DNA from: Thermodesulfobacteriota bacterium
GTDB taxonomy: Bacteria; Desulfobacterota_D; UBA1144; Nemesobacterales; UBA2774
Assembly (NCBI GenBank): GCA_965216785.1
Contig: OZ244197.1
Location: 1,568,001-1,632,000, forward strand
Length of the DNA stretch: 64,000 nucleotides
Direction of reading: 5' to 3'
The notes under the pieces are model-generated. The model had not been told where the DNA came from. It saw nothing but the letters and a program-made list of their open reading frames with translations, and did not search any database. The position numbers and the translations under genes are program-made. Positions 30,983 through 50,944 of this stretch are shown piece by piece. The stretch's first letter is position 1. The number at the start of each line of letters is the position of its first letter.

Positions 30983-31025
30983 ACGGAGGGCTGGCAGAAC
31001 GGCTAATGCACCGGTCTTGAAAACC
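30983..31025 (+). repeat. attL: 43-bp direct repeat equal to the 5' half of tRNA-Ser through the anticodon loop
   Basis: ACGGAGGGCTGGCAGAACGGCTAATGCACCGGTCTTGAAAACC identical to 50857-50899. Confidence 0.97.
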
Positions 31026-32621: not shown

Positions 32622-33482
32622 TCATTCCGAGAAGGCATCTCGATGATATGCTAGGTACTCGATATTTATATTGTGATTAGAGTCTATGATAATTTTCTTA
32701 CCAGTATCTATTACCGTGAAATCATCAGAAATGTGCAGTGTATGGGTATCAAACATAACATGATGATTGGGGCATAGACATAAAACATTTTCGATAATGT
32801 CAGGACCATTATGAGGTCTGCCTAAGGGTTTTATATGACAACATTCAGCATACGGTCCTGAAGGTGTAACTAATCTTATTCCGCAGACTTGACAACAATA
32901 ATTATAAATCCTTTTTACCTCGTTACCGACAGCTGTATTTCTTATAATGCGACTTGAAATTACATCTATCCGTGATGGCTTTCTGTTTTCAAATTCTGAT
33001 TTCTGTTTATTCTCACTATCTTTATTAAGGATATTTTCTAACGCTATCTGACCTTCTATTCTGCGTAATTTGAACCTTATAATATCTAAACCGTCAGTTC
33101 CTCTTTCTTTCCAATAATTATCTATCATATATAGACCGTCATATCTGTAGCCTTTATTTGGGGCATACATAGAGTCAAGCTCACTGCCTCTAATTACTCT
33201 TATTGGGTTTCCATCTACATAATTTTTAGCGAGAGACAAATTCCCTCTTGTGAGTGTTTGGTTAGAAATTTGTCGTCCTGTCTTTAAATCTCTGCCTCCT
33301 TGACCGGTATAAATTATGGTATCCCCTTCGTCTAGATCATCTACATAACCCCCAGACAAAACGATTGACTCTCCTCTAGATGATATGCCTTGTTGTAATC
33401 CTCTATGAATATCGGCGTCATGTAATGCTCTTCTATTCTCAAAAATTTGACCTATATTTGTACCTTCGATGTGTCCTATCAT
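32622..33482 (-). CDS. SRA/YDG-HNH endonuclease (putative modified-cytosine-dependent restriction enzyme)
   Basis: SIVLSGGYVDD, YTGQGG, YRYDGLY (SRA); CQVC..HIKPLG..NVLCLCPNHH (HNH). Confidence 0.93.
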   Translation of the reverse strand: MIGHIEGTNIGQIFENRRALHDADIHRGLQQGISSRGESIVLSGGYVDDLDEGDTIIYTGQGGRDLKTGRQISNQTLTRGNLSLAKNYVDGNPIRVIRGSELDSMYAPNKGYRYDGLYMIDNYWKERGTDGLDIIRFKLRRIEGQIALENILNKDSENKQKSEFENRKPSRIDVISSRIIRNTAVGNEVKRIYNYCCQVCGIRLVTPSGPYAECCHIKPLGRPHNGPDIIENVLCLCPNHHVMFDTHTLHISDDFTVIDTGKKIIIDSNHNINIEYLAYHRDAFSE

Positions 33483-36976: not shown

Positions 36977-37129
36977 GAACTTTAGGTTTTCGAGATAGCT
37001 GGCCCGGCATAAACTGACTACCACTACATAACAAAAATCAGATTTCCACTTATAGTATGCCGAATATTCTTACGAGCGTGCTCACAATATAGAATATATA
37101 AGTTGTATTATCCTGCCCTAATATAACTC

Positions 37130-37162
37130 TCAGAGCTCATACAGGCCCGTAGAGACGATTTT
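37130..37162. repeat. 33-bp exact direct repeat (copy 1), core of a ~75 bp imperfect repeat
   Basis: TCAGAGCTCATACAGGCCCGTAGAGACGATTTT also at 44620-44652. Confidence 0.93.
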
Positions 37163-37213
37163 ATAATGTGTCCCTGGGGTTTCCTTTTGTCAAGCTCATC
37201 CGCGTCTACAAAT

Positions 37214-38648: not shown

Positions 38649-38809
38649 TGTCTCTACCCTCCTTAAAGATAAAAATCTAAGTCTAAAGATTACTATAGAT
38701 TGATAGAAATTAATAGATGGTAAATCGTATTTATATGAGAGTTATTGACAAATCCACTGACATAGCTCCTGGTAAATAATCTGGATGTGACGTAAGTTGG
38801 TGAGATTAC

Positions 38810-38858
38810 TGGAGCCGACGATCGGAATTGAACCGATTACCTGCTCATTACGAGTGAG
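38810..38858 (-). pseudogene. 3' half of tRNA-Thr(CGT): orphan att-site remnant
   Basis: Minus strand reads CTCACTCGTAATGAGCAGGTAATCGGTTCAATTCCGATCGTCGGCTCCA; no D-arm or 5' acceptor strand. Confidence 0.88.
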
Positions 38859-39107
38859 TTATTAGTTAACCACAGGTTATCTAACTAACTGTAATTACTT
38901 GATAATATTTCCAGCATATGACCTCATATTAACTAAATACCATTGGAAGGTTAGATAATGGTTAGACACTTTTAATGCACATGCCTCCTGCGTAAGTATC
39001 TAATCTATCATGTTGTTACTAAGGGTTCAATAGTAGAATACGGGTAGTAACTCTTACTAATTGATTAGGCCCAGCTATAGGTTGATAGATGGATTTTTAA
39101 CATGCTA

Positions 39108-39133
39108 ATGAGGGGAGCCGAAGCTCCCCTCAT
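39108..39133 (-). terminator. GGGAGC-TTCG-GCTCCC hairpin
   Basis: Perfect extended stem downstream of the C-type lectin gene; weak U tract. Confidence 0.65.
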
Positions 39134-39201
39134 ACACATTTGATCCTCCCTTTTTAGCTGTGGAGGAGGATAGAGGGAGGATAGGATGAAAACATTATTT
39201 T

Positions 39202-39810
39202 CTATGCGGTTACTTTTCTTCTACGGATAGCTATTAGACCGATTATCCCTAATACACCAGCCATTACAATCAAGCCCCATTCACTGATCGTTGGGATAGG
39301 TCTGGGCGCCAGCACAAATGAAGGCTCAAATTCAATAATACATCCGTTTGTGTCAAAACAACCCTGATCGTTCCAACCATCTCCATCCATTTCAAGGCAA
39401 TTTTCACAGCCATCTTCACCTTCGCAGCCAGCATCATTGGGTTCATCTTCATTCCACGCGGTAAAATCAAAGGGTTCACCGGTGATCCATTCCCAATCTT
39501 CGTCTGGTTCAGCTGCACCTTCCGCCTGTATGCCACCCAACCAACCATCTCCGCAGTCAAGGTCATTAGTAATAAATTGCTGTTCCTGGTCATTATTTAC
39601 TGTTGCAAGATGGCCCTGCATAGTCATAAACACTTGTTGAGAAGCAAAATCTCTGGCATCAAACCAGTCGCGATCACAATCTATATAGCATTGATAATAA
39701 TGACCATTAACTGGATTAAATTCCGGTGGTGGAACACCATTAGCACTTGATGTCATAGGGAGGCTAATAAAAAGAAATAATAAAAAGCAACTAGTAGTAA
39801 AAGTCTGCAT
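39202..39810 (-). CDS. C-type lectin-like domain protein with IPTL-CTERM
   Basis: NGHYY, GHLATV, WLGG, WITGEP, EPND, WND.C; IPTISEWGL-TM-RRRK. Confidence 0.9.
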   Translation of the reverse strand: MQTFTTSCFLLFLFISLPMTSSANGVPPPEFNPVNGHYYQCYIDCDRDWFDARDFASQQVFMTMQGHLATVNNDQEQQFITNDLDCGDGWLGGIQAEGAAEPDEDWEWITGEPFDFTAWNEDEPNDAGCEGEDGCENCLEMDGDGWNDQGCFDTNGCIIEFEPSFVLAPRPIPTISEWGLIVMAGVLGIIGLIAIRRRKVTA

Positions 39811-40079: not shown

Positions 40080-40165
40080 TGTACTGCACCCCTTTTGTTA
40101 AGCCCGGTTTAAGTTGGATTTATGGATAATGAAATTAAACAAAAAAGGGAGCCGAAGCTCCCTTT
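40080..40165. repeat. 3'-end module: IS3-like terminal sequence + UUCG terminator (copy 1)
   Basis: TGTACTGCACCCCTTTTGTTAAG...AAAAAAGGGAGCCGAAGCTCCC; similar at 46608-46696 and 47566-47650. Confidence 0.8.
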
Positions 40166-41534: not shown

Positions 41535-41691
41535 AACCCCTTCCTCCTTTAGGAATAAATGATTGGTTCTATTCTACAATATTTTTAAAGTAATCAAAAG
41601 AGTATTGCTTAACTTATCCCATTTTATTAAATACATCCTCTGTGCTTATATTTATTCTGTATTCTAGAAATGAATCTGTATAAATTAGTGA

Positions 41692-41708
41692 TATTGTGTA
41701 CATAACGT
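41692..41708 (+). repeat. Res-like repeated motif, copy A
   Basis: TATTGTGTACATAACGT; exact at 44232, variants at 44802, 46405, 46530. Confidence 0.75.
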
Positions 41709-41954
41709 AAAGATGGTGTGTAATTAAACATATGATGGTAATTAGTTGAGATTATTGAGAATATATGACTTTAAAAGAGAGCAGTGCACAAGCATAGTGA
41801 TATAAATAATTACTAGTCACTTGGTGTAATGATATTGAGTCACTTTTTCAACATCTGGTAGTTTCCATGTTTTGTCAAATAACGACTTCTCAGGCCTATA
41901 CAAACTGTTAATCAGAAAGAAGTCTTCTCCAGTAAGTAGCCAATTTGATTACTT

Positions 41955-43028
41955 TCACCCTCCATTATTGGGTTTGAGAGGAATCCCATTATCGTAACTA
42001 ATGTCCCCGTCAAGATATTTTTTACCAGGAGGTGCCTTATCACCGGGGACTCGCTCCTTTTCCACATAATGTCTGCCATCGTACACATGAGTAACATATG
42101 TCCGGGGAGCTCCGCCACCCGATTCTAACCGCACAATGTTGTTCCATCCCGATGTTCTCTCGTCAGAGACAATGACCGGTAAACGGCTTATGGGAAAGTT
42201 ATCAACTAATTCGTAACCTTCTTGGCTTGGAGTAAAAAGCATTAGACTACAGCCGCCTGTACCGCAGAATATTGAGCCCAAGAGGTAGACAAAGACTTCT
42301 TGGGCTCCATCACCGTTTAGATCAACCCGAGTGTAAACGTAACGCGCTGTGATTCCGTTACCAATATCCATCATCTCTTGATTATAGTCAGGAGACTCTC
42401 TAATTATAGCTGCCTCAATAACTGAGTCGGGCTCTGTCTGTAAGTTTCTTTGGTCGTCATGTGGTTCCCACACATAAATGCCGCCGTCTGCCATCAAACT
42501 AAGGTAGAGCTTACCATCTTTTAATAAGTAAGAGCGTACATATTGGGTATGAGTCGAAATTTGCTCATCCAGTCTCGGAGCGGGGCAGAGCGCATTTGTG
42601 GTCGCAAGCTTCCCAAATTCAAATCGACCGCTTGTGCCGTCAGGACCAGCTTGGGACGACCATGTTCCATTGGCTTGATTACAGTCAAGCATCATGTTGA
42701 CAGCCCCGTCAGCATTAAGTTGCATGGTAAACTTGGAAGAATCTTCTGGTCGTATCGTGTCCACTGAGTCATCCATTGACTGAAACTCTAGCAGGCGCCA
42801 TTTGGTTCCAGCGAGCGATTCTACGACACCGGTTTCAGAATCAGCAGTTTTATCCTTGTCCGACACGGCCTCAGTTGATTGAGTATCAGATTGTGTTTGA
42901 GGTTCATCACCGGACTGGCTGCACCCTGTGAACATGAGCAAACTTACTAAAAACATAACTACAATATAAAGGCACGTAGCTGAATTATATTTAAGATTCT
43001 TATTTACCACTGATTTAACTCGTTTCAC
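41955..43028 (-). CDS. META-domain lipoprotein
   Basis: Lipobox FTGC; LAGTKWRL, DCNQ..G, T.ALCP; C-terminal DLNGDG..CGTGGC domain. Confidence 0.85.
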   Translation of the reverse strand: MKRVKSVVNKNLKYNSATCLYIVVMFLVSLLMFTGCSQSGDEPQTQSDTQSTEAVSDKDKTADSETGVVESLAGTKWRLLEFQSMDDSVDTIRPEDSSKFTMQLNADGAVNMMLDCNQANGTWSSQAGPDGTSGRFEFGKLATTNALCPAPRLDEQISTHTQYVRSYLLKDGKLYLSLMADGGIYVWEPHDDQRNLQTEPDSVIEAAIIRESPDYNQEMMDIGNGITARYVYTRVDLNGDGAQEVFVYLLGSIFCGTGGCSLMLFTPSQEGYELVDNFPISRLPVIVSDERTSGWNNIVRLESGGGAPRTYVTHVYDGRHYVEKERVPGDKAPPGKKYLDGDISYDNGIPLKPNNGG

Positions 43029-43121
43029 AAAATGCAGAAATCAGCAAAGTCTAAATTCTATTGAGTAAATTGCACTCTGCCTGCCAATAGAAATGACTCT
43101 GCTGATTTCTCAGTATCTTTA

Positions 43122-44147
43122 TCAACCGCCGTAAATTACTGCTTCGGGGATTTCATAACGCTCGTTTCCGGCATTTATCATATACAAGTCAGATTCTTTT
43201 TTAGATTCAAAATCCATGTTGCCGTCTGCTTGAGAAAGATCAGCGCTTACAGCGTTTCCGTTCTCAAAGAAAATAGCCCGCTTTCTTCCATCCGGTAGTG
43301 TGACTGTTACTGTTGCTGTTCCATTACCTTCTCTTGTCACACCGAATGGACACTGACCCATCGGCTGTCCTTTGGACTGTGCACAGGGGATATCTCCTGT
43401 GGCATCATATATATCCTGCCCGGCAAGCTCAGCACTCTGAGCCTCTGATGCCGAGTCAGGCGCGGAGAATGTAAGTTTCCATTTACCCCATTTAAATACT
43501 TCGTTATCTCCCTTGTCTATCATAGAAGCAATATTTTTAGACATACCCTCAGGTGTTTCCACTTGATAGCCATTGCTTTGTTCCATAAAGCTATAGGTCT
43601 GCCCGTTGCTAAAATTTATCACGTACTTATTGGTGTTTTGTGAAGCATGCTGTTCTATTTTACAGGTGCCTTTGTATTTATTGTTGTCGCTCTTTTTGTT
43701 ATACAAAGTGCATTGCCCGTCAACCGATGTTACAACAGGCTCAAACTCGGCAGTTTCACTATTCTTACAGTCAAATTCGGGTGCGTAAACAATCGACTGA
43801 TACCTGCCGTCTGCTGTACGGATCGTAACGCATTTTCCTGTGCTGTTTTCTGTCCAATAACTATAGGAGCTGTCACCGGACTTATCGGTTTTTACGTAAG
43901 TGTAGCCCCTCTGCTTAAGTCCCATCTCAGCCTGACCAGCTTTTGCTCCAACAAGGTCAGATAACCCTTCGACCGGGTCCTGGGCATATACAGGCTGTAC
44001 AGTTTGTGAAATAACGATTAAGAAAACGATAATGAAAAGACTAGATAAAAGGTAGCGCATAGCATTCCCTCCTGAACATTTTATTTTTGACCAACCCGCC
44101 ATAAACAATTGAATAATTATTCTGATTAAAGTTGTAGTATCAAGCAT
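43122..44147 (-). CDS. Exported hypothetical protein (likely start MRYLL at ~44060)
   Basis: Signal peptide; C-terminal CPFGVTREG..ERYEIPEAVIYGG domain. Confidence 0.7.
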   Translation of the reverse strand: MLDTTTLIRIIIQLFMAGWSKIKCSGGNAMRYLLSSLFIIVFLIVISQTVQPVYAQDPVEGLSDLVGAKAGQAEMGLKQRGYTYVKTDKSGDSSYSYWTENSTGKCVTIRTADGRYQSIVYAPEFDCKNSETAEFEPVVTSVDGQCTLYNKKSDNNKYKGTCKIEQHASQNTNKYVINFSNGQTYSFMEQSNGYQVETPEGMSKNIASMIDKGDNEVFKWGKWKLTFSAPDSASEAQSAELAGQDIYDATGDIPCAQSKGQPMGQCPFGVTREGNGTATVTVTLPDGRKRAIFFENGNAVSADLSQADGNMDFESKKESDLYMINAGNERYEIPEAVIYGG

Positions 44148-44231
44148 TATTTTGACTATGGCAGAGGTATATCAGACTTCGAAATTTGATAGTCATCTTG
44201 ACCCTGGAATCAAACTTGATATTATGGGTGG

Positions 44232-44248
44232 TATTGTGTACATAACGT
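44232..44248 (+). repeat. Res-like repeated motif, copy E
   Basis: TATTGTGTACATAACGT; near-inverted TTATGCACAA at ~44282. Confidence 0.75.
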
Positions 44249-44311
44249 GAGCGTGTTGAGGGCTTAATCCGGGTGCTGTAATTATGCACAATTATTGAGT
44301 TTTCTGGCAAT

Positions 44312-44333
44312 AAAAAAGGGAGCCGAAGCTCCC
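44312..44333 (-). terminator. UUCG hairpin terminator
   Basis: GGGAGCTTCGGCTCCCTTTTTT on the minus strand. Confidence 0.8.
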
Positions 44334-44373
44334 ATTTGCGTTTTCAATGAGTACTGTATAGGTTAGTTTCCGA

Positions 44374-44490
44374 TTAAGCTGTAACTTTCTGCTGTGGATA
44401 ACTATTAAACCTATAATTCTTAATACTCCTACCATGGCTAACAGTCTCCTTTCGATAAGGGTTGGGATGGGTGTAACAAAATCAGCTCCT
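44374..44490 (-). pseudogene. Orphan, decayed IPTL-CTERM tail
   Basis: Reads TPIPTLIERRLLAMVGVLRIIGLIVIHSRK, followed by the standard terminator, with no intact passenger domain. Confidence 0.75.
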
Positions 44491-44619
44491 TTTATTACAG
44501 CTATAATCACTGAATCATTGGCAGCTGGCTCTGTACACAACTTACAAAGTCCTTGAGCATCCTCCTTACTAAGAATATAGGACATAAAATATATATGTAA
44601 TCCTGCTATAATATACCTT

Positions 44620-44652
44620 TCAGAGCTCATACAGGCCCGTAGAGACGATTTT
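44620..44652. repeat. 33-bp exact direct repeat (copy 2)
   Basis: Identical to 37130-37162. Confidence 0.93.
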
Positions 44653-45239
44653 TTTAGGTGCCCCTGAGCTTACCCCGGTTATTTGATTTAAAGAGCCTCT
44701 GTAACTAGGCTCTTAATATTTTACCGCTTCCCTCTTGCTAAGCATGTCTTCTGCGTTTATATGTTTTCTGAATAATAAAAAGAAGGGATATAAAATTCCT
44801 TTATTATGTCTACAATGTAAGCTTGTCCGGCTCTTAATTGGATTACCGTGATGATTAACATATGAGATGAGGGAATTTCTCGATATTGTCTTATAGTTTC
44901 AGACGTTCTGTTTCCTAGTTCATATTTAGCAACCTCTGTAATGTTAAGTATAATCAAGATCCTTTCATACGGTATAGAAAATGTCACCTCGTCACAACAT
45001 ATTCAGACTCTCTTATATAAAAATAATTTTAATGGAAGAACAATCTGCTTTGGATTGTAATGAGTATGCTGCTAGGTGGCTCAACAGCTAAACATCTGGA
45101 TCCGTATTCCCAGTCCTATTTACTTTTATAAGATTTCAATTATTATGACTCTCAACATTAAAAACAAATGTTCACATTTAGTGGTCTTGCATGGGAAGGA
45201 TTCGCAGTGATGGACAAAAATTAAAAGAGAAGCCGTAAT

Positions 45240-46175
45240 ATGCGTCATTTTAATAATATTCTTTATGTCGGGCATGGTACCTCAGATGAAACCGAAGGCC
45301 TCAAGCAGGCGCTGAGTCTGGCCCGTAATAATCAAGCCCCGCTGAAAGTTCTTATCGTGTGCCCGGATTTCCCCACAGATATGCCTGATTATAAAATGAA
45401 GTACGAAGAATCGCTTCTGGAGCAGGCAAACGCCTCCATCCACTCTACCAAAAAGGCGATAAAAATTGCCGAAGAAGACGTAGAGCTTTCTGTAGAGCTG
45501 GAAAGCGATAAAAATCCCTCTATACGCATTATTCAGCATGTGTTGCGTAACAGTCACGATCTGGTTATTAAAGAAGCCGAACCCCTTGAGGATGGTGGTT
45601 TTAAGGCTATCGACATGAGCCTGCTACGCAAATGCCCGTGCCCGGTGTGGCTGTGCCGAGCTATCAAACAAACCCGACAGCAAATCCATGTGGCGGTGGC
45701 CATTGATCCTGCGAGTAAGGAACCGGCAGTGCAAGCACTCTCAAAGAGAATGCTGGAGCTCTCTAGTTCACTCGCAGATAGTTGCAGCGGGGAATTGAGC
45801 ATTATTTCCTGTTGGGACTATGAATTCGAGAATTATTTGCGTGGCAGTATGTGGATAAAAATGTATGATCAGCAAATTACAGAAATTGTTATACAGGCAC
45901 AGAATAATCACAAGGCCGTTCTGGAAGCCTTGATCAAGGAATCAAGGATTTCAGGCATATACCATATACATCATCTTAGGGGCCGGGCTGAAGAATTGAT
46001 CCCATCATTTACGGAGAATAAGAAGGTCGATATCCTTGTAATGGGCACGGTGGCGCGTACCGGAATAAAGGGATTGTTGATTGGAAACACGGCGGAAAAT
46101 ATCGTACAGAAACTTTCCTGCTCGCTGATTGCGTTGAAGCCAAGCGGTTTTATCTCCCCGGTAAAGGCGTATTAG
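45240..46175 (+). CDS. Universal stress protein (tandem USP, UspE-like)
   Basis: HDLVIK, LLRKCPCPVW, VMGTVARTG..GLLIGNTAE motifs. Confidence 0.93.
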   Translation: MRHFNNILYVGHGTSDETEGLKQALSLARNNQAPLKVLIVCPDFPTDMPDYKMKYEESLLEQANASIHSTKKAIKIAEEDVELSVELESDKNPSIRIIQHVLRNSHDLVIKEAEPLEDGGFKAIDMSLLRKCPCPVWLCRAIKQTRQQIHVAVAIDPASKEPAVQALSKRMLELSSSLADSCSGELSIISCWDYEFENYLRGSMWIKMYDQQITEIVIQAQNNHKAVLEALIKESRISGIYHIHHLRGRAEELIPSFTENKKVDILVMGTVARTGIKGLLIGNTAENIVQKLSCSLIALKPSGFISPVKAY

Positions 46176-46383
46176 CACAAGGGAAGGTCTGAATGCAAGA
46201 GATGGAACCAGATCGTGTAGCGCAAAGCTGGCATAGCGAAACAGCGGATCATAGTTTGACAAGCCCCAGAAAACATGTCCACCTTTTAAATTATTAATAT
46301 TCATATAATCCTCTCTAATAAGTTGAGGCAAATCCATGCTACTCACCTTTTTTATAAGTCGTTTATGCATTTTAACACTAGAA

Positions 46384-46575
46384 AAGAACGGGTATTAGTC
46401 CCGTTATTGTGATTACAATGTAAGTGTGATTGGATCTAGCTTAAGGTACTGTGTTTGTTGGTTGTTTTGATGCACTTCTGCGCTTATATGTGTTCACAAT
46501 TGTAGTAAAGAAGGGGTATAAATGAGTGGTATTGTGAACATAACGTAAGTGTGATTGGCTCTAGCTTAAGTTGCT
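46384..46575 (+). repeat. Two tandem copies (125-bp period) of the res-like motif (D, C)
   Basis: TATTGTGA..A.AA.GTAAGTGTGATTGG.TCTAGCTTAAG at 46405 and 46530; inverted TGTTCACAAT/ATTGTGAACA at 46491/46531. Confidence 0.8.
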
Positions 46576-46607
46576 GATATGACTGACTATTATAAGGGTG
46601 CTACTGT

Positions 46608-46696
46608 TGTACTGCTCCCCTTTCGTCAAGATAGATTTAAGTTAAGATTATCAATAAAAGAACTACAATAAAAAAGGGAACCGAAGCTCCCTTTTT
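46608..46696. repeat. 3'-end module: IS3-like end + terminator (copy 2)
   Basis: TGTACTGCTCCCCTTTCGTCAAG...AAAAAAGGGAACCGAAGCTCCC. Confidence 0.78.
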
Positions 46697-47565: not shown

Positions 47566-47650
47566 TGTACTGTACCCCTATGTCAAGACAGGTTTTAGTT
47601 GAATTTAATACCGAAGAACTAAACTAAAAAGGGAGCCGAAGCTCCCCTTT
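47566..47650. repeat. 3'-end module: IS3-like end + terminator (copy 3)
   Basis: TGTACTGTACCCCTATGTCAAGACAGG...AAAAAGGGAGCCGAAGCTCCC. Confidence 0.78.
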
Positions 47651-49546: not shown

Positions 49547-49741
49547 ATGACTAAAAGATTCAGACCCAATTTGATACACATATATCTCCATCCTGATGAG
49601 GACAAGTTCCTCAAGAACTACGCCGAGAAGAACTACATGACAGCTTCTGAGCTTATCAGAGGCTGGATTCACGAAGTTATGAAAATAGAAGGGGTCGAGA
49701 TTACAGAACCAAGAAATCCTGAAAGGAAAAAGGGGAGGTGA
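49547..49741 (+). CDS. Ribbon-helix-helix-like regulator
   Basis: IHIYL beta strand + EDKFLKNYAEK + TASELIR; overlaps integrase start. Confidence 0.72.
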   Translation: MTKRFRPNLIHIYLHPDEDKFLKNYAEKNYMTASELIRGWIHEVMKIEGVEITEPRNPERKKGR

Positions 49742-50838
49742 GTATTATGGCGGTTTTTAAAAGAAAGGTTAAGGATAAAGACGGCAAAGTCACAGAATAC
49801 TGGTATTACGAACTACCACTACCAGGTGGAAGGAAGCTAAAAAAGAGTGTGGGTAAGGTGGGCAGAGCGACTAAAGCTATGGCTCGTCAGGAAGAAGATC
49901 AGAAATGGAAAGAGATTAAGAACGGGCAGTTAGGCAATGTAGAAATACCGACATTGAATGATTTCAAAGACGAATATTTAAACTACAAGAGGGAAGTTAG
50001 TAAAAAGAGGTCATGGAAACGGGATGAAGAACTGTTAAGGCCGCTTTGTAAGCTCTTTGGTACTAAAAAATTGTCTGAGATTACTATACAGGATCTTGAA
50101 GAGTTTAAGCAGATAAGGCTTAAGGAAGTAAGCTCAGCAACGGTTAACCGTTCACTGTCTGTACTGAGGCATCTCTTAAATCTGGCTAAGAGATGGGGGA
50201 AGTTCTACGGTGATAATCCAGTATCGATTGTCGGCTTGCTTGAAGAGCACAATAAGATAGAACGGGTTCTAACGCCAGAGGAAGAAAGAAGGCTGCTCAG
50301 TCAGGCTATTAACTACCTGAGACCTATATTATTCACTGCCCTTAATACAGGTATGAGAAGGGGCGAGATATTAAACTTAAAGTGGTCAGAAGTTGATTTG
50401 GAAGTAAACCTCATTACGGTTAATCAGACTAACTCGAAGAGTAAGAAAGAGAGAAGAGTGCCGATTAACTCACCAATGAGAACCATGCTGCTAGAATTAA
50501 AGCTTAAGTCGACGAACTCAGAATTTGTTTTCACAGATAATCAGGGCAATCCCATAAAGACAATAAGAACAGCTTTTGCTGCCGCGTGTAGGCGAGCAGG
50601 AATACCAGAGCTCAGGTTTCATGATTTAAGGCACACAGCGGGCACGAGAATGGTTGAGGCCGGGGCTAATATCGTAGCTATTAGCAAGATTCTCGGCCAT
50701 AGTGACATAAAGACAACTATGAGGTATGCTCACCCAGAAGAATCACTCAGAGAGGCTCTTGAATCATTGGCTAAATTCGGGGAAACTACTACCAATATCG
50801 CTACCAATGATATTGCCCATAACTCAGAAGTGACGTAA
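49738..50838 (+). CDS. int: Tyrosine recombinase/phage integrase
   Basis: TGMRRGE, K, FHDLRHT, LGHSD, TMRY catalytic motifs; next to tRNA att. Confidence 0.97.
   Translation: MSIMAVFKRKVKDKDGKVTEYWYYELPLPGGRKLKKSVGKVGRATKAMARQEEDQKWKEIKNGQLGNVEIPTLNDFKDEYLNYKREVSKKRSWKRDEELLRPLCKLFGTKKLSEITIQDLEEFKQIRLKEVSSATVNRSLSVLRHLLNLAKRWGKFYGDNPVSIVGLLEEHNKIERVLTPEEERRLLSQAINYLRPILFTALNTGMRRGEILNLKWSEVDLEVNLITVNQTNSKSKKERRVPINSPMRTMLLELKLKSTNSEFVFTDNQGNPIKTIRTAFAAACRRAGIPELRFHDLRHTAGTRMVEAGANIVAISKILGHSDIKTTMRYAHPEESLREALESLAKFGETTTNIATNDIAHNSEVT
50785..50807 (+). promoter_or_regulatory. Putative arm-type sites inside the int 3' end
   Basis: ACTACTACCAA-T-ATCGCTACCAA, matches 31163-31185. Confidence 0.72.
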
Positions 50839-50858: not shown

Positions 50859-50944
50859 GGAGGGCTGGCAGAACGGCTAATGCACCGGTCTTGAAAACCG
50901 GCGTCCTTACGGACTTGGGGGTTCGAATCCCTCGCCCTCCGCCA
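50859..50944 (+). tRNA. tRNA-Ser(TGA), intact, contains attR
   Basis: GGAGGGC/GCCCTCC acceptor, CCGGT-CTTGAAA-ACCGG anticodon arm, long variable arm, GTTCGAATC, encoded CCA. Confidence 0.98.

Follow-up and report, generated by a model that had tools for sequence, protein, structure and literature searches.

A short, directly oriented repeat marks module boundaries in a Dadabacteria genome

The locus

The window analysed here is a stretch of 64,000 nucleotides (G000:C1:1568001-1632000) from G000, a single-contig genome of 3.12 Mb. Coordinates without a prefix are window positions, and those preceded by G000 are genome positions. Five sites of a short repeat sit in an island of about 20 kb, which runs from a 43-bp duplicate of the 5' end of tRNA-Ser (30983-31025) to tRNA-Ser itself (50859-50944) and holds a tyrosine integrase, an AEP primase and five intact IPTL-CTERM genes (Table 1). 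We find that the repeat is real and lineage-restricted and that it marks the boundaries of modules. Repeat positions are counted from the first T of the core (+1), with the pentamer GTAAG at +16 to +20.

An initial annotation of the window, made from the sequence alone, described five co-oriented recombination sites at 41692, 44232, 44802, 46405 and 46530. All five are present and all lie on the plus strand, with 0, 0, 5, 4 and 0 mismatches, respectively, to the 17-mer quoted as their core, so the match is exact in three of five only. The copies at 44802 and 46405 belong to a second subtype, L2 (TTCC..TATTGTGATTACAATGTAAG-like), and the other three to L1. Each of the quoted shared flanks was found in three of the five window copies. 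The description of the cargo largely held: the orphan IPTL tail with its terminator, the usp gene and the empty 125-bp unit were all recovered. The supposed pair of META lipoproteins held for one member only. The protein of 41955-43028 has a META domain; that of 43122-44147 has no Pfam or NCBIfam match and is unrelated to its neighbour (best E 0.91, which amounts to no similarity). Its homologues in G018, G012, G003 and others stand in different surroundings. The initial annotation missed that the sites belong to a genome-wide family, and that an end of an IS3-family insertion sequence (IS) starts some of the copies.

The repeat family

A motif-model scan of the genome and its relatives, as the initial annotation had proposed, recovered this family. 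With a weight matrix, 22 copies in G000 scored above 20 bits, against none in the locally shuffled genome (best shuffled score 5.9). One weaker copy was added, giving a working set of 23 full copies, together with a copy at G000 2690911 that has the right half only. Relatives and four metagenome contigs supplied 30 further copies, for a total set of 53. Besides the window array, clusters lie at 864-871 kb (a serine-recombinase island in comM), 1164, 1214, 1497-1503, 2686-2693 (beside a tRNA-Thr integrase) and 3007-3015 kb of G000. Of the 120 genomes of the class, 10 gave BLAST matches to the family, falling in 2 of 32 genera; two further, diverged copies in G001 were found by the matrix. Among the genomes searched, the family thus appears restricted to two genera of uncultured Dadabacteria. 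Exact pattern scans matched four metagenome contigs, no genome contig and no viral contig, a long exact pattern had no match in five genomes, and BLAST against plasmids and phages returned chance matches only. Supplements aside, no description of the repeat turned up in literature searches on Dadabacteria insertion sequences, on IPTL-CTERM and on IS3 miniature inverted-repeat transposable elements (MITEs) with passengers, or in broader ones.

None of the 24 G000 copies lies inside an open reading frame (ORF) of at least 150 aa; such ORFs cover 84% of the genome. Neighbouring copies point the same way in 25 of 25 pairs and in all 14 multi-copy clusters. These figures come from a hand tally, which counts the half copy, two weak copies and a pair whose members lie 49 kb apart. 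Copies occur in islands whose integrases differ, and also at loci that lack an integrase. Single genes or gene pairs lie between copies in G001, G002, G009 and metagenome contig L036, and empty units of 125, 125 and 128 bp occur in two islands. Two arrays end in a third, diverged version of the left part, at G000 864742 and 3015604, which lies 131 and 114 bp past the last full copy.

Breakpoints and cargo exchange

Cargo is seen to differ at a copy of the repeat at the aspC-SBP locus. The SBP gene has aspC about 80-120 bp upstream in 24 of the 26 relatives having the gene (of the other two, one has no upstream DNA and one is G001). In G000, G001 and L036, three different cargo genes stand at the SBP gene, each followed by a copy of the repeat 43 bp before the start codon. 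The same SBP flank adjoins an L1 copy in G000 and an L2 copy in L036, which are identical at 20 of 45 positions left of +16 and at 41 of 45 from +16. Against full copies, the half copy at G000 2690911 is identical at 29-30 of 31 positions from +15 and at 10-11 of 44 to the left. The columns that tell L1 from L2 span -27 to +15, and further right there are only three weakly linked columns. Taken together, the subtype swap at the SBP locus, the sharp edge of the half copy and the subtype linkage suggest a single exchange point at the GTAAG core (+15 to +21). For the G031 and G009 copies at one host locus, family similarity ends at +19 and +21.

The initial reading of the sites as recombination sites that define cassettes therefore stands in part. 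Their role as module boundaries follows from the differing cargo and the strict orientation; that a site-specific enzyme cuts them we only infer. Sequencing runs X2-X5 come from a single sample, which is probably the source, and they bear out the assembly. Joints at the sites seen in these runs at 80% likeness come from paralogues and vanish at 96%. Run X1 holds a small share (depth 2-5), and all seven of its pieces matching at 96% fall within 41721-44205, between copies 1 and 2. At most this hints that the module between those copies occurs alone, as absent cover elsewhere proves nothing.

Anatomy of the repeat

The longest form of the repeat is about 190 bp. An IS3 right end, scored as a match of at least 15/24 at -86 to -80, is found in 14 of 53 copies, beginning 81-84 bp upstream; 27 control windows gave 0-2 of 50-53. 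The identical 24-nt end closes an IS3-family element in G003, and the G000 member of that IS group scores 173 bits against an NCBIfam IS3 cut-off of 160. The next 35 bp or so resemble the last transposase codons and are collinear with them (equalled by 0 of 150 permutations for L2 and by 11 of 150 for all copies). On the right, 13 copies meet the terminator of an IPTL gene at +82 to +84. G000 also has 19 copies of the IS3 end without a core, three of them in the window island and in the same orientation. IS3 ends abut or interrupt the motif at L208 and L203, and one copy lies inside an IS3 element (L291).

No such parent emerged for the core itself. From -25 to +25 it bears no significant likeness to an IS, with local alignment at null level; it has no coding signal (dN/dS not significant, 27/40); and a profile search of 1.84 billion proteins gave no protein parent, the plus-strand frame not being searched in the large collections. 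With the translated core, the profile search returned two singleton hypothetical proteins only, and Pfam gave nothing relevant. A coding origin was rejected: a plus-strand likeness to the IS3 C-terminus, noticed post hoc, was equalled by 0 of 120 column permutations but scored -7.6 against 56 for true members, and nhmmer on 30 IS loci matched only a motif copy beside an IS. The right part of the repeat, tried as an IS3 5' end, stayed at null level. No inverted IS3 end stands at a constant distance on the right, with no second, inverted end found to close the repeat as in an IS3-derived MITE. Visual inspection hinted at a left IS3 end closing the insertions in G024 and G031, which could not be confirmed. 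The 34 copies folded as DNA show no conserved hairpin (mean z -0.39 and -0.56), and Rfam has no relevant match. Position +15 is C in L1 and T in L2, and the crossover triplet GTT occurs in L1 only.

Related elements were noted in passing. Short elements at G000 107351, 691978 and 1279111, about 110-150 bp long and bounded on both sides by IS3-type ends, are apparently MITEs. In G000, 53 ORFs end in an IPTL-type motif, and one terminator occurs in 39 copies (40140, 44311, 46669 and 47624 in the window). In many cases an IS3 right end stands ahead of them in direct tandem, which looks like a second module-like system. The singleton hypothetical ORF P0242 has four 25-aa repeats resembling the translated core (E 8.8e-4) and may reflect 75-bp units of the motif amplified in tandem in a metagenome contig.

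Candidate enzymes

In all five motif-bearing genomes searched we found XerC- or XerD-like proteins and a third Xer-like protein of 289-303 aa. In G000 the third protein (G000 1318854-1319723, L308) has YxxR for HxxR and no LGH motif, and may be catalytically altered. A chromosomal dif site lies at G000 2550768, near the GC-skew maximum. Over 34 copies, the repeat aligned to dif in a 6-bp register around GTAAG matches the XerC arm at 1-3 of 11 positions and the XerD arm at 4-9 of 11. A register with an 8-bp centre (-8 to -1) gives a mean of 11.35/22, a weak likeness reached by 1 of 150 column permutations.

Other candidates were tried and set aside. IS1595 is present in one of five genomes and absent from G000. 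IS91 was found in none of the five, a result that carries no information because no control was positive either, and no integron integrase (IntI) exceeded the TIGR02249 cut-off in the five genomes or in any control genome. The island integrase has no close relative found in G009 or G001, and copies of the repeat also lie in islands with other integrases. G009, with eight BLAST matches to the repeat, also gave no short tyrosine recombinase, Tn3, IS110, IS200, integron integrase over the cut-off, island-integrase relative or IS3 core match, in an assembly that is 93% complete and of a kind from which mobile genes are often missing.

The short tyrosine recombinases of G000 are 208-213 aa long and consist of the catalytic domain only (G000 870935-871561, 1163412-1164038 and 1289416-1290057; L009, L017 and L018). 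Each has a conserved palindromic element upstream, and they have more than 100 homologues at 75-93% identity. Internally deleted remnants lie near G000 864700, 1152550 and 1291950. At L089 and L090 a short tyrosine recombinase stands beside a large serine recombinase.

Interpretation

The explanation we favour, held tentatively and at slightly less than an even chance, is that the repeat is a recombination site with exchange at its GTAAG core, used in trans by an enzyme and bracketing cargo in direct orientation. The stretch between two copies would be excised as a circle carrying one copy. The circle would re-enter at another copy, and arrays of one copy plus cargo would build up in this way. 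Units of 125-128 bp would be modules without cargo, and the subtype hybrids, half copies, direct arrays and empty units would all be products of circle exit and entry. The IS3 end and the terminator would be passengers, neighbours of the site in the founding cassette that were copied along with it. A chromosomal tyrosine recombinase is the most likely source of the enzyme, because island-coded candidates were not found in the motif-rich genomes. In its fullest form the explanation becomes a so far undescribed cassette system of two Dadabacteria genera, in which recombination between direct repeats of the GTAAG-core site, carried out by a host enzyme, shifts secreted- and stress-protein modules between unrelated islands and host loci, with no integron integrase, dif site or resolvase. 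We regard that extended version as rather unlikely.

Several results weigh against a recombination site with its own enzyme. No enzyme was found to co-occur with the repeat. The searches found no serine recombinase in G001, G002 or G009 (80, 82 and 93% complete, with several copies each), no Tn3 transposase in 33 genomes (controls were positive in 2 of 14), and no IS110 or IS200 in five genomes. The short 208-aa tyrosine recombinase abuts a site in two of its three G000 copies, but the motif occurs at none of the relatives' seven loci (1.5-kb flanks) and at none of 51 further loci. No significant dyad marks the repeat (best 0.388, reached by 46 of 60 column permutations). The expectation in the initial annotation that gains and losses of genes would break at the motif held at the aspC-SBP locus, the half copy and one other host locus; most copy edges lie elsewhere, from -94 to +16 on the left and from +19 to +110 on the right. 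The precise breakpoints represent about three independent events, and a module boundary without a copy exists (G002 C8 vs G000). Empty alleles, which came from genomes with a likeness of only about 65-75%, mostly do not resemble the core (1 of 29 windows exceeded the 99th percentile). Ordinary crossing-over within the shared right part would likewise be expected to erase linkage beyond +15. Finally, source-sample contigs, which drop rare variants, show no joints at the sites at 96% likeness.

Passive portable homology is the main alternative, somewhat doubtful in our judgement. The repeat would then be what is left of the flank of a single ancestral cassette that ended in an IS3 (its right end, a spacer and the terminator of an IPTL-CTERM gene) with no dedicated site or enzyme, and circles would re-enter by RecA, or by IS3 transposase beside old ends, which would account for both the spread and the co-orientation. 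The IS3 right end in 14 of 53 copies is far above controls and is the known end of the G003 element. The 19 core-free ends in G000, the collinearity of the distal left part with the transposase 3' end in L2, the ends that abut or interrupt the motif at L208 and L203 and the copy within an IS3 element at L291 all fit this history, as do the scattered edges. Conservation of the core is also partly a matter of ascertainment, since copies were found by their core. Yet that core has no significant IS likeness, coding signal or protein parent, and no partner end stands at a fixed distance on the right. Genus g3, from which the motif was not recovered, has the same IS group. Both the subtype swap at the SBP gene and the half copy have their break inside about 6 bp of common sequence, which is less than RecA requires.

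The remaining explanations invoke known kinds of site. That the copies are cer- or pdif-type targets of host XerCD is improbable. Xer-type recombinases are those common to the motif-bearing genomes, and the register with an 8-bp centre has a weak likeness to dif; but that register puts the crossover at -8 to -1, in conflict with the mapped +15 to +21, and in the register around GTAAG the XerC arm matches at only 1-3 of 11 positions in all 34 copies. The pdif-like character suggested in the initial annotation finds no support in this arm or in the orientation: the sites are direct in 25 of 25 pairs, whereas pdif sites around single modules are inversely oriented (PMC13141974). XerCD is also present in genera without the motif. 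We give still less credence to res or att sites of a serine recombinase. The units, at about 125 bp, are as long as a res site; at the SBP locus, 9-10 of 14 pairs around a central AG are complementary in the copies; and a copy has a large serine recombinase 0.4 kb away in G000 and 1.9 kb away in G029. The res-like half-sites of the initial annotation did not survive comparison with column-permuted controls, however, as there is no dyad above them across the family. G000 has two large serine recombinases only, with no small resolvase found, and G001, G002 and G009 were found to have none despite several copies each. An equally slight chance goes to a promoter or transcription-factor site, the very result that the initial annotation had set against its own reading. 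Copies are always intergenic, TATAAA is present and L2 has a TTGT-N4-ACAA-like palindrome. Support for such a site was nevertheless lacking: adjacent genes have their starts or stops towards the copies in all combinations, no window copy scores as a sigma-70 promoter, and the count is that of chance (15 vs 14.6). The palindrome is lost in the copies of genus g2, and half copies and empty tandem units would go unexplained.

Features of the island

Table 1. Repeat copies, cargo genes and related features of the island (window positions).
Feature	Position	Strand	Evidence
tRNA-Ser 5'-end duplicate, left border of the island	30983..31025	+	100% over 43 nt
Core-free IS3 right-end copies, each followed by an IPTL terminator	40080..40103, 46608..46631, 47566..47589	+	
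Copy 1, L1; core 41692-41711; weak IS3-end match 41609-41632	41609..41790	+	14/24 to IS3 right end at -83
Cargo gene for a META-domain protein, lying between copies 1 and 2	41955..43028	-	Pfam PF03724, E 3.5e-9
Predicted secreted protein without family match, cargo between copies 1 and 2	43122..44147	-	
Copy 2, L1; distal left part missing; core 44232-44251; meets IPTL-gene terminator at +83	44220..44345	+	
Orphan, decayed IPTL-CTERM gene tail, behind its own terminator (44318-44333)	44370..44486	-	translation, paralogy
Copy 3, L2; core 44802-44821; IS3 right-end match 44720-44743	44720..44870	+	17/24 at -82
Cargo gene for a universal stress protein, lying between copies 3 and 4	45240..46175	+	Pfam PF00582, E 1.3e-25
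Right-end remnant of a second IS3-family group	46257..46291	+	7 mismatches/35 to end of IS in L208
Copy 4, L2 (core 46405-46424), with empty 125-bp unit	46405..46529	+	97/125 identical to 125-bp unit at G000 2692903-2692779
Copy 5, L1; core 46530-46549	46462..46600	+	
Island tyrosine integrase adjoining tRNA-Ser; not tied to the repeat	49738..50838	+	

Four further observations concern the island. Positions 41842-41956 contain the 3'-end remnant of a gene that has an intact paralogue (G000 865003-866436) among the cargo of the comM island. A tRNA fragment with its flank, at 38806-39240, is 80-86% identical to stretches of the tRNA-Thr island (G000 2680327-2679912 and 2682606-2682317), which is a sign of exchange between islands. 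A direct repeat of about 95 bp (37089-37184 and 44584-44674; 82% identity) has a 33-bp identical core that breaks short-read contigs. The SRA-HNH gene at 32622-33482 likely encodes a modification-dependent restriction nuclease.

Comparison with known systems

In translocatable-unit arrays of IS26, cargo segments have directly oriented IS copies at their ends and between them, and a unit is one copy plus cargo (PMC4196232). The arrays described here likewise have one directly oriented repeat copy between unique segments. IS26 copies, however, are whole ISs with an active transposase, whereas the repeat is shorter than 200 bp, holds no gene and carries at most one IS3 end. A pdif site of Acinetobacter consists of a XerC arm, a 6-bp spacer and a XerD arm, and sites alternate in orientation and are served by a host enzyme in trans (PMC13141974). 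As in those dif modules, short sites split accessory genes into shuffled modules, some of them empty (same source). The repeat differs in its direct sites and in the poor match to the XerC arm around GTAAG.

In integron attC arrays, direct sites separate cassettes of one or few genes, and empty cassettes occur. Directly repeated sites, cargo of one or few genes and empty units are shared features. The integron-like label of the initial annotation nonetheless does not fit: no IntI exceeded the cut-off in five genomes, there is no bottom-strand hairpin, GTT occurs only in L1 and cargo faces either way.

The true IS3 right end on about a quarter of the copies and the IS3 debris around them recall IS3-family ends and MITEs and end-targeted insertion (PMC9330008 and, for IS30, PMC9333248). 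Unlike IS3 MITEs, the repeat has no paired left end at a fixed distance, and its core bears no significant likeness to the IS; independent IS3 insertions, for their part, would not be strictly co-oriented. ISs that target Xer sites are known and sit 5 bp from the site (PMC10132070). Here the IS3 end is 83 bp from the site, not 5. The GGGG...TAAG of the repeat is like a Tn3-family terminal repeat, and no Tn3 transposase was found in 33 genomes.

The repeat behaves like an IS26 array or a dif-module system but does not belong to either, nor to integrons or res sites. Cassette systems that lack a recombinase gene of their own, such as pdif modules and IS26 arrays, were recognised from such patterns. 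If the crossover at GTAAG is made by an enzyme, the repeat would represent a new family of sites and a new pairing of recombinase and site in a little-studied phylum, with a short, defined substrate. If it is passive, the repeat still shows how the gain and loss of genes throughout a genome can be structured by a remnant next to an IS end.

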